Shown here: piece after piece, positions 42,727-63,541 of the stretch
How the letters are laid out: each line of letters starts with the position of its first letter
Numbering within the stretch: the first letter of the stretch is position 1
DNA from: a virus
Lineage: Duplodnaviria; Caudoviricetes
Length of the DNA stretch: 64,000 nucleotides
Direction: 5' to 3' (one strand)
IMG/VR virus record: IMGVR_UViG_3300032167_000004
Span: 199,787-263,786 of that record
Made by a program: the position numbers and the translations under genes
The notes under the pieces: model-generated
The model's database searches: none
Seen by the model: the letters and a program-made list of their open reading frames with translations, nothing else
What the model was told of the DNA's origin: nothing

Positions 42727-43857
42727 TTAACTATTCAAATCATCAAATAAATCTAAAGAAAAACCATAATCTTCATGACCAGTTTCATCCATACTTCTAT
42801 ATGTATTCATGAATCCTACACGATTATTAAATTCTTCAGATTCTCTTTGTGCTTTTTGCATTTCATTATATAATTTCATTGAATATGGATCTAATTTAGG
42901 TTCATACTTTTTTTTGTTTCCATCAGCATAACTAATCTCATTATGTAAATCTGCTCTGCTCAATAATCCACGTTTTTCTTGAATCATTGATCGCATATCA
43001 ATTTCCATATTAAAATTATTATCATTCTGTGTATTAATTCCTAAAAATTCTCTATCATTATCAGATAAAGCATTAACAATTTCACCATAATCCATTCCTT
43101 TATTTCTTTCTTCCTCTTCAGGAAGAACACCTCTAGTAAATCCATAACGTGCTAAATTATTACCATAGTAATAAAGATATAAACACATTAAGAAGGACAT
43201 AATAGAGTCATCATGTGCTCCTGAGATTGCCTGAATCTTCGAACGTATACGAACTAATTTCATTAAATCATCAATTACATTAGCACCAACGAATGATTCC
43301 TTATGCTCTTTTACATAATCATCAAGAAGTGAGAACATAACATCACGAGATTTACCTCCCGTCCAGATGCCATATAGTTTGCGTCTAGCAGCTTCTTGTC
43401 TAATAAAACCTTGACCATCTAATTTATCATCAACATTATTAATTAATTCTTTATTATTATCATAATATAGATTACCTCTAATTTCACTATCTCTTAAATG
43501 GTCAAGAACAGCTTCACCGTTAGCATTTCTTTCGATAGCAAGTATAGATCTAGGTAAATATTTCATTACTAAGATATATAAGAATTTAATTAAGTCTTTA
43601 ACACCAATATGTGGAGATTTAAATTCTGCAACAGTTTTTAATGTATAAGGATCCCAAACAGTAACAGCAGAGTTATCCAATCCATAACCATTTGAAACAT
43701 CAACACCAACAAAATATATTCTTTTTTTATCTAATGGTTCATATACATCTAATTTAAAAATTCTATTAATATAAATTTCTTCTTTAATAGTACCTTTTCT
43801 ATCCTGAATAGCATCAAGATCTTCAGGATCATAAGGGGACTGAGAGCTACCGTGCAT
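42727..43857 (-). CDS. terL: terminase large subunit, exon 3 (nuclease domain)
   Basis: FVGVDVSNG, IERN, HDDSIM; begins right after the intron terminal G at 43858. Confidence 0.85.
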   Translation of the reverse strand: MHGSSQSPYDPEDLDAIQDRKGTIKEEIYINRIFKLDVYEPLDKKRIYFVGVDVSNGYGLDNSAVTVWDPYTLKTVAEFKSPHIGVKDLIKFLYILVMKYLPRSILAIERNANGEAVLDHLRDSEIRGNLYYDNNKELINNVDDKLDGQGFIRQEAARRKLYGIWTGGKSRDVMFSLLDDYVKEHKESFVGANVIDDLMKLVRIRSKIQAISGAHDDSIMSFLMCLYLYYYGNNLARYGFTRGVLPEEEERNKGMDYGEIVNALSDNDREFLGINTQNDNNFNMEIDMRSMIQEKRGLLSRADLHNEISYADGNKKKYEPKLDPYSMKLYNEMQKAQRESEEFNNRVGFMNTYRSMDETGHEDYGFSLDLFDDLNS

Positions 43858-44035
43858 CAAATATATTCATATAGAAGTATTAATTCTATATAGTTCATTT
43901 AAGAACTTCTATATATTTCTATATAGTTTAGACTATATCTTCATCCTTTAATAAGGAGTTTCCTATTAATATTTATTTAAATACTATAGTCGTTGAACCT
44001 TCTAAAAAATAATTTTCCGTAAACTCACCAATTAT

Positions 44036-44048
44036 AAATATATATTAT
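44036..44048 (+). promoter_or_regulatory. early-type promoter motif inside intron 2, antisense to terL
   Basis: AAATATATATTAT, identical to copies upstream of early genes. Confidence 0.6.
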
Positions 44049-44052
44049 TTAT

Positions 44053-44351
44053 ATGACATAGATATAGAAATATACTTTATGTCATTATACTTATTTGTGA
44101 TCAAATATACAGATCACAAAATTAACTCTACCAAAGTTGTTGAAATCCTATCATCTAAGGAATAGACAAGCTAACCTTATTAAGGTAGTTAGTGCATCCC
44201 ATTGAGGAGTAGATCTGAAATCCTGAGATCGAAACGGTAGAGCATCCTAACAGAAATCTGAAGGATGAAACTGCACAAATCCTACTAGTAATAGTAGTTC
44301 AGGGTGAGTCCTGGAATAAGGAATGGTGAACAGGCACCATTTCTTTTTTTT
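44053..44351 (+). ncRNA. candidate structured ncRNA nested antisense in the P6 loop of intron 2
   Basis: No long ORF seen; GC-enriched; several helices incl. CTCTACC/GGTAGAG; ends in hairpin ATGGTG/CACCAT plus T run. Confidence 0.55.
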
Positions 44352-44451
44352 ATTTTTTTAGCTTGGCTGCTGATTATCTATTCATATAGACTTTCCAGCA
44401 ATTAAGGAAATTCATATATCATATTACTATGATATGACGCTTATTTATTTT

Positions 44452-44778
44452 ACGTCTTAAGAATATCTCTCGTTGAATTTTTAATTTATCACCATTAAGA
44501 TATGCACATACTTTATTAAACCATGCTTCATCTTTACCTAACTGCTGATACTGAAATTCAATATAAACAATTCGGTTAATAGAGTTGGTTTCAATATAAT
44601 CATATACATCTTCAATAGGTTTATCATAAAATGTTTCAGAGAATTTACAAGTATTTTCAATAATCTCTAATGCATCCATACCTGCCTGGGAGTCGAGATC
44701 TCCAGGAGTACTTGTTAGTATCCGACAATGAATAGAATTGTTCCTTTTTGCATTTTCAGATGCCGTTGAATATGCAGG
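44452..44778 (-). CDS. terL: terminase large subunit, exon 2
   Basis: 109 codons PAYSTAS...RILTSTPGD...REIFLRR, in frame with exons 1 and 3. Confidence 0.85.
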
Positions 44779-44955
44779 CTTTTTTATATTTCTATAAAAA
44801 ATAGACTATATCTTCATCTTATATACTATCACCATATATAAAATGCTCTCCATTTCCATTCTTTTTCTTTTTTTATGAAAAGGAATGTACTCTACTCAGT
44901 TACTCTCATAAGTATTTCTCTTATGATACCTTTTCGATAGTCGTTGAACTGTATT

Positions 44956-45549
44956 TTAAAAATTATAATGAGCAGATATATTTTTTCTAAGTCTACGTTT
45001 TTTGACATGTCTCAAAAAATAATATAATTTTAAATTATCACCACATTTACTGTATCCAAGAACTTCCATAACATCTGGAACATCAAATCCGTCAGCAAAT
45101 AATTTACAAACTTGATGTGTTAGCTCATCAGAATAAACACAAAAACCATTAGATTCACCATATAAATGATTTATATGTGGTTTCGCAGATCCATGTCTAT
45201 ACGAATGTTTATTATTTTCAGATTGTGTTGTCCATTCTAAATTTTTATAATAATTATGGTCACGAATTGTATCAAGATGATTTACAAAAATTTTATCGGT
45301 AGTTTCATCATACCCATCACAAAAATTAAAAGCAACTAAACGATGTAAATAAATATACATTGTTGTGCCATCTTCGGCTTTAAAAGTACCTCTAATATAT
45401 CCATCTTGATCTCTGGAATTAATACGTTTAAGTTTACCAGTTTTTTTATTTCTGACATTTCCATAATTACTTATTTCATAATTATTTTTCAATCCTGGAT
45501 ATCGTGCATCGACAAACCTTTCAGGTTCATCATCAATAATTATATACAT
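44956..45549 (-). CDS. NUMOD4-HNH homing endonuclease
   Basis: YEISNYGNVRN (NUMOD4), LHRLVA, VNHLD...N..NLEWTTQSENNKH (HNH). Confidence 0.9.
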   Translation of the reverse strand: MYIIIDDEPERFVDARYPGLKNNYEISNYGNVRNKKTGKLKRINSRDQDGYIRGTFKAEDGTTMYIYLHRLVAFNFCDGYDETTDKIFVNHLDTIRDHNYYKNLEWTTQSENNKHSYRHGSAKPHINHLYGESNGFCVYSDELTHQVCKLFADGFDVPDVMEVLGYSKCGDNLKLYYFLRHVKKRRLRKNISAHYNF

Positions 45550-45583
45550 AACACATCATCCTATTCTACAATAATTTTAATAA

Positions 45584-45595
45584 TAAATATCTGTT
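45584..45595 (-). promoter_or_regulatory. intron-internal late-type promoter for the HNH gene
   Basis: AACA-GATATT-TA about 35 nt upstream of the HNH start. Confidence 0.6.
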
Positions 45596-45778
45596 CATAA
45601 TTGAATAATTTTTAAAATATTAGCTGCGGATTGTCCAATCTTATAACCTTTTTACTATACCTTTGGAATTACCCATCGCCACTAATATATCACTATATTA
45701 GTTTAGTAGTTATAAACTTAAGGAGTTTCCCGCAATTAAGAGAGTTATCACAATATAACAATTGTGAAGGCCCGTTTG

Positions 45779-46501
45779 ACCCGATGCTGCCATAATAGTT
45801 TTAATATATGATATGAATTCGAATTCATCATAGTATTGAATAACTTGTGAAGAACCACGACCAATTCTTTCAGCAGATTCAATACCACGAGCTGAAGGTT
45901 TAGTAACAATACTATTACCATTAGAAGCGTTCTTTAATGTCTTAGTATTGTCAACACCTTTAATTTCTTTACCATCATCATCAAAAGCAATCTTGAATTG
46001 TAAGTATGCTGGCAATAATGCTCTTTGGTCTTTTACTTTAGTTAAGTTAGCAATTGCACGTTCTGCAGTAATATTTAAGAACATCATTTCTGCATTAGTA
46101 GAACCGAATAAGAATGCCCAGTTTATATTGGCAACAGTAGATTCTGTTTTACCAATCTGACGAGGAATAACTAAGTAATTATCAATACCATTAATAAAAC
46201 ACCAAGTAGCTGCTAAGTTTGCTCTATTTAAAAGATAAGGAACACCTTTAGGGTTGCCTTGGTCAGGAATTCTAGCAACTTCTCGTAAAAAGTACCAAGG
46301 ATTGATAATACACTCATTAATAATACGAACGATTTGATCATCACTTAAAAATGGAGAATGTGGATCTACTCCTCTTAAAGAAGGATCATACAACTTTAAG
46401 AAGAACATGTTATTCTTAATTCCTAATTTCTTTAAGTCTACGGCAGTTTGTACAAATGAGATATTTGTAGTATTAACATCGTAGATAAAATTTCTTGACA
46501 T
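45779..46501 (-). CDS. terL: terminase large subunit, exon 1 (ATPase)
   Basis: NPWYFLRE, PRQIGKT (Walker A), GRG, QYYDEFEF (Walker B); late motif at 46531-46542. Confidence 0.88.
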
Positions 46502-46636
46502 TATTCTCCTCCTTTATAATATTTATCGATTACAAAAATGTTAAAATTATACTCTGTAACAAAATAATAATGAATAAAAATATATATTATCTATATAGAT
46601 ATACATAATAATTTTTGCTAATTATGGAGGATTACT

Positions 46637-47008
46637 ATGTTATATAGGTATGAATTTGAATCTGGATGTGAATATCCACATACTGGAATTATACTTGGAT
46701 TAGATGATATATTTGATAAATTTAATAATAATTTATTAAACACTATAGTATTTTTTGAAAATAATCTTAAAGCTCCTATTATATATACTGACATTAATGA
46801 AAGAGTTACATTTTATTTTACAGAAAAAGGTAATGAAAAATTTAATAACTGTATAAAAACAATTAAAGAAGAAGCTTTAAAACTTGGTATAAATATTATT
46901 AGATTAGAATTAGATAAAGATATAGTTAATAAAATCTATTATGAAGATGAATATCAAGTTGTTGTTAATGATAAATATATTAATAATAGTAAAGTGTTTA
47001 GAATATAA
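46637..47008 (+). CDS. hypothetical early protein
   Basis: GGAGG RBS; early motif at 46578-46590. Confidence 0.75.
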   Translation: MLYRYEFESGCEYPHTGIILGLDDIFDKFNNNLLNTIVFFENNLKAPIIYTDINERVTFYFTEKGNEKFNNCIKTIKEEALKLGINIIRLELDKDIVNKIYYEDEYQVVVNDKYINNSKVFRI

Positions 47009-54418: not shown

Positions 54419-54598
54419 TTTCTATATCATTCCTTTCATAATAGTATTATATATCGAATAATATTATTATAATGTACGAATAATTTAATTTATAAAAATC
54501 GTATAGTTAGTGATAATAAGTATATATTATTAATATAATAAAGAGAAGGAATAACTCTTAAAACCAATCAAGAATTAAAATGAAAAGAGGAAAAAATA

Positions 54599-63399: not shown

Positions 63400-63541
63400 A
63401 TAATAAAAACACCCTCTCTATAAACTATTATTAAAATGTTAACTGTTTATTAATAATCGTATTAATACAAAAAATAAATATATATTATTACAATAGAATA
63501 TAAGAAGGAAAACTTTATAACCAAGAAAGGAATTAATTTTT

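Follow-up and report, generated by a model that had tools for sequence, protein, structure and literature searches.

A predicted early transcription unit without a long reading frame, opposite the large terminase gene in a group I intron of an AR9-like jumbo phage

Two group I introns interrupt the large terminase gene on the minus strand of an AR9-like jumbo phage, and the P6 loop of the second holds an insert without long open reading frames (ORFs) that carries, on the opposite strand, the promoter, structured interior and terminator of a predicted early RNA. The DNA analysed, hereafter the window, is 64,000 nucleotides (nt) long and comprises bases 199787-263786 of the 263,786-bp virus record IMGVR_UViG_3300032167_000004 (G+C 28%); coordinates are those of the window unless given as genome coordinates. 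The sequence is present in animal faecal and gut metagenomes from several studies, and both promoter types of phage AR9, early and late, are in use in the genome. The low G+C content, together with a distant terminase relative (44% aa identity) on a 244-kb contig labelled Romboutsia ilealis, faintly hints at an AT-rich host among the gut Clostridia.

Group I introns of the terminase gene

The terminase gene and the core elements of its second intron, which houses the insert, are laid out on the minus strand as follows.

46531-46542, minus: AR9-type late promoter AACATTTTTGTA, pattern AACA-N6-T(A/G), upstream of the terminase start codon at 46501
44779-45777, minus: intron 1, group I, 999 nt, delimited by alignment to the intron-less relative L018; ORF between Q and R
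44452-44778, minus: terminase exon 2, 327 nt (blastn against intron-less L018)
43858-44451, minus: intron 2, group I, 594 nt, delimited by intron-less alleles, core elements and partial Rfam Intron_gpI matches
44375-44365, minus: intron 2 Q, AATCAGCAGCC (core-element location)
43998-43984, minus: intron 2 R, GTTCAACGACTATAG (core-element location)
43941-43931, minus: intron 2 P7-3', AAGATATAGTC (core-element location)
42727-43857, minus: terminase exon 3, collinear with the intron-less 694-aa (amino acid) protein P0058 of L018 and matched by tblastn to the AR9/PBS1 terminase

Exon 3 is 24-34% identical in amino acids to the large terminases of AR9, PBS1 and other jumbo phages (tblastn). The gene is a late one because of its AACA-N6-TA promoter, the consensus AACA-N6-T(A/G) being that of the AR9 study (PMC5312081). 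The boundaries of both introns are fixed by natural intron-less alleles: L018, a relative with 88% nt identity, has an uninterrupted 694-aa terminase whose DNA aligns to 46579-45778, 44778-44451 and 43857-42704, and a contig of run X12 joins 44461 to 43857 via nine synonymous bases, and both alleles join ...CGU(44452) in frame to AUG(43857). In intron 2 the 5' splice site comes right after U44452, and the terminal base, G43858, directly precedes exon 3; P1 is a GACGU/GCGUC pairing with a U.G pair at the 5' splice site, and Q, R, S and helices P2-P9.2 were all located. Against RF00028 the intron gives two partial matches of about 27 bits each (E ~2e-4), under the gathering score of 50 bits because the insert splits the model. 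With an intact core inside an essential gene, intron 2 is presumably self-splicing.

A 197-aa ORF resembling a NUMOD4 endonuclease (44956-45549) lies on the sense strand of intron 1, with Q (45632) on one side and R (44949) on the other. Intron 2, which has no endonuclease of its own, probably rides by co-conversion on that of intron 1, 327 nt away, an arrangement that would leave its P6 loop free for other cargo. Intron occupancy of the terminase gene is polymorphic among relatives (L018:4001-6085; L006:187-1458; L013:1-260; L008:3150-3520), ranging from no introns in the 88% nt relative, through an empty site 2 in a relative with 76% aa identity, to a site-2 intron with a short P6 whose core is closer to that of intron 1, and is consistent with active intron gain, loss and exchange. 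Group I core motifs occur at at least nine or ten loci of the genome. One further intron-like core lies at genome 181774-183540, about 16-18 kb before the window, behind an early promoter and a 10-codon ORF (MIKICTLGLI); inside it are a second early promoter (182157) and a 412-aa ORF (182208-183446) as sense-strand cargo.

The P6 insert and the predicted plus-strand RNA

Between Q and R, where intron 1 holds its endonuclease ORF, intron 2 contains an insert closed by CTAAAAAA(A)TAA (44361-44350) and TTATTTTTTAG (44012-44002). A preliminary description of this DNA had read the insert, put at about 350 nt and without a long ORF, as an early non-coding RNA gene on the plus strand. The core elements and closing pairs now located bear out its account of the position, and every feature that it had listed was found where it had been placed. 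From left to right the elements are the following.

44002-44012, minus: P6 3' arm, UUAUUUUUUAG (core folding)
44013-44349, no strand assigned: ORF-less cargo of about 337 nt, which with the new P6 arms (about 360 nt) replaces the short P6 hairpin of sister introns
44036-44048, plus: early promoter of the virion RNA polymerase type, AAATATATATTAT, followed by ttatat and the predicted start G44055
44055-44083, plus: 5'-terminal hairpin beginning at the predicted +1, with a GAAA tetraloop at 44067-44070 (folding)
44094-44120, plus: perfect 9-bp hairpin with a 9-nt loop (folding); three listed natural variants all lie in the loop
44126-44242, plus: multi-branched domain closed by CUCUACC/GGUAGAG (44126-32/44236-42) (folding)
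44243-44315, plus: three hairpins, at 44243-44267, 44282-44297 (GUAA tetraloop 44288-44291) and 44298-44315 (folding)
44318-44353, plus: intrinsic terminator, with an 11-bp stem (4 G-C, one G.U) and 6-nt loop at 44318-44345, then T8-A-T7
44350-44361, minus: P6 5' arm, CUAAAAAAAUAA (core folding); the same bases on the plus strand are part of the terminator T run

The promoter at 44036-44055 is an exact, letter-for-letter match to the AR9 early consensus, AAATATATATTAT-(6N)-G, spacing and start base included, which upholds the early motif of the preliminary description. In AR9 this consensus was mapped by differential RNA sequencing (dRNA-seq) and assigned to the injected virion RNA polymerase, and 33 of 34 predicted early copies were active, the lone silent one being one base off (PMC5312081). 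The present genome has 27 exact copies, against about one expected by our own rough composition estimate. Behind 25 of them follow a Shine-Dalgarno (SD) sequence and an ORF of at least 40 aa, mostly within 14-75 nt; one of the remaining two stands at the contig end, and the copy at 44036 is the only complete exact one without an ORF behind it. At genome 76647-76950 a one-mismatch early promoter, GAATATATATTAT, is followed by what appear to be two tRNA genes and no ORF, and the early promoter class therefore appears to serve non-coding genes too.

Several other early units were noted in passing. In genome 23380-23724 (minus strand) an exact early promoter is followed by about 330 nt with ORFs of only 18-29 aa, the 5' end of the unit, AUACCGUAAGG, pairing with its 3' end, CUUUACGGUAU, right before a T9 run; it may be a small-protein mRNA or a second non-coding RNA. 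The notion of a family of such RNAs was dropped, as this second ORF-less early unit folds at a z-score of only -1.7. Early transcripts at window 54518-54580 and 63476-63540 and at genome 81234 and 54560 share a similar post-promoter leader, a short hairpin around GA(G)AAGGAAAACUC and then UAAACCAAGAAAGGA, which may be a conserved element of the 5' untranslated region. Next to the terminase gene (46578-47008, plus strand), a 123-aa ORF is driven by an exact early promoter that points away from the late promoter of the terminase, a layout kept in relatives L019-L025. A late-promoter-like AACAGAAATCTG at 44249 (plus strand), spotted by eye, was set aside as being at chance frequency by estimate.

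At the far end of the unit, the terminator scan gave 4 hits per 4.2 kb against 0.8 in shuffles; AR9 transcription stops at predicted intrinsic terminators. Together, folding, a repeat finder and the terminator scan recovered the hairpins of the preliminary description (44053/55-44083/85, 44094-44120 and the smaller ones), its long-range helix at 44126-32/44236-42 and its terminator. The repeated AAATC(C)T motif that it had pointed out is likewise present, AAATC(C)U occurring four times in the predicted RNA, and no other place on that strand of the genome has three copies of AAATCCT clustered as here, within 135 nt.

Coding potential is slight: there is no ORF of at least 40 aa in 43861-44418, in agreement with the preliminary description. 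A small-protein gene was considered and rejected, since the longest small ORFs of the insert (28-33 aa) have no SD sequence and, among the variants listed, one at 44085 places a stop in the 28-aa ORF, the 33-aa ORF running across the terminator. Nor does the insert contain a tRNA or tmRNA (ARAGORN), and against Rfam 15 it has no match at the gathering score on either strand, with noise only at E up to 10; no RNA family can be assigned to it, which is what the preliminary description had reported.

The exact promoter consensus and the canonical terminator indicate that a discrete plus-strand RNA is very probably made. An injected AR9-type virion RNA polymerase would start at G44055 and stop at the hairpin and U tract near 44346-44353; its product, about 295 nt long, stable and highly structured, would be present as soon as the first minutes of infection. 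The cargo would have taken the place of the short P6 hairpin and have brought, or evolved, nested end-pairing helices with which the minus-strand ribozyme could loop it out without giving up the splicing of the essential terminase mRNA. The unit, with its own promoter and terminator, lies wholly inside a transcribed intron of the late terminase gene, to which it is fully complementary. Its RNA, a perfect complement of the P6 insert, could begin pairing through loop-loop contacts between mirror-image hairpins; such pairing would change how intron 2 folds, splices or is processed by RNase III, and would in this way tie terminase production to the early-to-late switch.

Taken as a whole, the statement that the P6 loop of intron 2 carries an independent, ORF-less early transcription unit opposite the terminase gene, with a cis-antisense mode of action, is given a probability of roughly 45%. 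That the plus-strand RNA has a selected function is slightly favoured; that it acts in cis as an antisense partner, pairing with the late terminase pre-mRNA or with the excised intron, is, as a separate claim, tentative and on the unlikely side. This role is nevertheless ranked first because the intron itself is the only target that can be named from sequence; we infer a role in trans as second and a functionless relic as third in order.

Origin, strand and rival readings

The closest paralogue of intron 2 is an ORF-less intron in another gene of the same genome, outside the window (genome 44740-44995, minus strand). It is 83-88% identical to intron 2 on both sides of P6 but has a 17-nt P6 hairpin, ACCAAUUAUAUAUUGGU, and shows the form of intron 2 that preceded the replacement of P6. 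An intron at the same site of the terminase gene, also with a short P6, occurs in L013 and L014 (79% terminase aa identity) and in L008 and L019-L021 (62%). Because the relatives and the paralogue have the short form, it is in this lineage alone that the P6 hairpin was replaced as a whole. The insert is kept at about 92-100% identity in relatives from two other studies (runs X10, X11), and L003-L005, L016 and L017 are copies at 100% identity.

Two candidate readings were discarded. A target-site duplication, as left by a mobile element, would be mimicked by the flanking CTT/CTT, which is the conserved AAG...AAG of the intron core and also surrounds the sister P6. Joints that would represent an insert-less form of intron 2 (44008->44352 in X6, 44003->44360 in X11) have short sides and lie in deep, multi-copy intron-core contigs; they most likely stem from paralogous introns and were not used. 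Separately, 44164-44174 (AGACAAGCTAA, plus strand) is complementary, with one mismatch, to plus-strand 44358-44368 at the Q/P6 junction, so that the predicted plus-strand RNA would contain an almost exact version of AGCCAAGCUAA from the minus strand, a resemblance roughly estimated to lie near chance level.

The strand served by the fold was assessed from free energies, tetraloops and natural variants. Three sets of values were compared over the length of the transcript.

44055-44351, plus: minimum free energy (MFE) -85.0 kcal/mol, z -6.1
44055-44351, minus: MFE -73.7 kcal/mol, z -3.2
36 random genome windows of the same length: mean z -1.25, standard deviation 1.54, minimum -4.8

Over this span the minus strand is thus 11 kcal/mol worse than the plus strand and inside the normal range of the genome, and another fold-versus-shuffle test of the plus strand gave z -5.6. 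Of three tetraloops, two (GAAA, GUAA) conform to GNRA when read on the plus strand and none does on the minus strand, the probability of GNRA for a random 4-mer being 0.036. The plus strand is also favoured by the G.U pair of the terminator stem, which is an A.C mismatch on the minus strand, and by the start of the first hairpin at the predicted +1. All seven variants listed within 44055-44125 fall at unpaired positions (P ~0.002, with 29 of 71 positions unpaired), a result that is suggestive only; the listed variants spare the stems and include no double changes.

Several points weigh against an independent antisense unit with a function of its own. Most helices are pure Watson-Crick, so that they fold on either strand, and the minus strand reaches -90.5 kcal/mol (z -4.7) when its flanks are included. 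The minus-strand fold moreover has a closing helix of 13 bp with two G.U pairs, which adjoins P6 on its inner side.

44303-44316, minus: closing helix 5' arm, UUCC-A-GGACUCACC
44015-44029, minus: closing helix 3' arm, GGUGAGUUU-AC-GGAA

Its duplex energy of -16.7 kcal/mol is matched by 3 of 2000 shuffles, and such a helix is what the intron needs for looping out a large insertion. The intron therefore accounts for part of the structure, through selection or at least tolerance. The insert belongs to a single lineage, the relatives at 79% and 62% aa identity having the intron without it, a distribution that also fits a recent selfish or neutral acquisition. The variant result applies to the variants listed, 86 others standing outside that list, and among the 24 listed runs that hold the sequence none is an RNA run. 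Beyond the near-identical relatives, no homologue was found: not with the insert and intron in 50,697 phage records (megablast/blastn), not with five insert patterns in IMG/VR or two in JGI metagenome contigs, and not with one 20-mer in the GTDB genomes; blastn and a single-sequence covariance model (R1, 143 nt) run against five related jumbo phages of 210-247 kb and the phage's own genome returned noise or self only. A cis-antisense role would demand that an early RNA persist until the late transcript appears. Of the early non-coding RNA in the terminase intron that had been proposed beforehand, the anatomy and the plus-strand transcription unit have stood; the BLAST survey of the insert revealed neither an occurrence outside introns nor any homologue that could support it.

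The strand data bear most directly on the view that the insert serves the minus strand alone, as a peripheral domain in which an extended P6 aids or regulates intron folding and the plus-strand promoter and terminator are silent by-products. The energy of the minus strand with its flanks would agree with this, as would the nesting of its closing helices (P6, 11 bp; 44303-16/44015-29, 13 bp), the inner of which so few shuffles match. We consider it very improbable all the same: an exact 13-nt promoter with N6-G is expected by chance far less than 0.001 times in about 350 nt (own estimate), every other complete exact promoter copy drives genes, and sister introns cope with a 17-nt P6. The preliminary description had named a minus-strand fold as an outcome that would speak against its proposal, and that strand does not give the better structure across the transcript (z -3.2 against -6.1). 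The 44015-44029 arm is outside the plus-strand RNA because it lies upstream of the plus-strand promoter. With the minus-strand closing helices outside the transcript, the insert has therefore been shaped on both strands, its ends for the ribozyme and its interior for the plus-strand RNA.

Lineage and fold together bear on another explanation, that of a relic or selfish passenger: either a deleted antisense cargo gene left its promoter-terminator cassette behind, or the cassette was captured by recombination between promoter copies, and its RNA, if made, would have no selected function. The restriction of the insert to one lineage, with a short P6 in sister introns at the same site, would suit such a history, and the 25 nt around the 44036 promoter, identical to another early promoter at genome 196712-196736, hint at recombination between copies. 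Introns of this genome hold varied cargo with early promoters (an HNH gene; a 412-aa ORF), and nuclear group I introns are known to harbour antisense endonuclease genes. A relic nonetheless appears improbable: a decaying coding sequence would not be expected to have GNRA loops, listed variants restricted to loops and a transcript-strand fold at z -6.1, and promoter and terminator have each stayed intact and exact. The insert shows no remnant of an ORF: in tblastn with 819 ORFs of the genome the best E for any query was 0.002, which loses significance once multiple testing is allowed for, and so left no trace of the decayed endonuclease that the preliminary description had set out beforehand as an alternative.

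A third possibility shares the early RNA with the cis-antisense reading and differs in the target: the RNA would act in trans, as a protein scaffold or sponge, an anti-defence decoy or another riboregulator, and the intron would be its safe harbour, free of coding cost. The plus-strand-specific fold, with a multi-branched domain, a long-range helix and GNRA loops, goes beyond typical antisense stem-loops; AAATC(C)U is present in four copies, a cluster without a second example on that strand of the genome; and the promoter class suits an RNA needed at takeover. This reading is judged unlikely, given that no Rfam family matches on either strand, that the repeated motif sits in differing structural contexts, and that the RNA shows no surplus of complementary sites elsewhere in the phage genome (32 12-mers, the range in shuffles being 17-67). 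The lack of a homologue in the five related jumbo phages means that any such role is not a conserved core function. More specific candidates were examined and rejected. A guide RNA for the phage's candidate TnpB-like protein finds no backing, as the insert shares only the promoter with that region; inspection by eye showed no guide-like 3' segment that matches the intron-less junction beyond 7 nt, judged to be at chance level; and a CsrA-type sponge on the minus strand (AGGAU motifs) was set aside because the motif contexts are inconsistent.

Comparison with known intron cargo

AR9 offers the closest likeness, with an identical early consensus and with a promoter and cargo that lie inside a self-splicing intron of a late gene and are expressed independently (PMC5312081). 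In its RefSeq record, whose locus tags are offset from the g-numbers of that study, the virion RNA polymerase beta gene (6 joined pieces) contains a same-strand HNH homing endonuclease coding sequence. The AR9 cargo is thus apparently a protein gene on the same strand, whereas the unit described here lacks an ORF, runs opposite to its host gene and is closed by a terminator of its own.

Nuclear group I introns likewise carry cargo in peripheral helices, P6 included, sometimes in antisense orientation and in one arrangement, the twin intron, as a second ribozyme. Their antisense cargos, however, encode proteins and their hosts are eukaryotic ribosomal DNA rather than a phage protein gene; the second ribozyme of a twin intron lacks a separate promoter and belongs to the transcript of the intron itself. 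Lambda OOP, P22 sar, CopA and RNA I are classical cis-antisense RNAs from phages and plasmids, 70-110 nt long, that overlap coding or leader regions. Like the unit in intron 2, they are short, stable stem-loop RNAs opposite their target, with their own promoter, an intrinsic terminator and loops capable of kissing; the predicted RNA differs in being about 295 nt long and multi-branched, and in that its overlap is confined to an intron loop absent from the mature mRNA. Intron-TnpB hybrids provide a group I intron with non-endonuclease cargo, including a functional non-coding guide RNA (PMC10690162), but here no TnpB or other protein gene stands beside the RNA, which ends in a terminator hairpin and has no evident guide segment.

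The cargo types in the literature searched are homing endonucleases, a second ribozyme in the same transcript and transposon TnpB modules; an independently promoted, terminator-ended, antisense RNA gene without an ORF is absent from it as group I intron cargo. That such a stand-alone, opposite-strand early gene for an RNA of about 295 nt does form the cargo of intron 2, timing terminase splicing or acting in trans, is possible, with the odds leaning somewhat against it. Since work on AR9 has already defined the promoter class biochemically, the proposal is open to direct tests.

If the proposal is true, RNA-gene cargo would be a new category of intron passenger and the transcript a new class of early non-coding RNA in jumbo phages. 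Should the RNA be made and act on its own intron, splicing of a packaging gene would be coupled to the early-to-late switch, adding a new layer to phage gene timing; should it act in trans, it would be a new early non-coding RNA of AR9-like jumbo phages, whose early programme uses an injected polymerase. In either case, intron loops could be safe harbours for genes that do not encode proteins.
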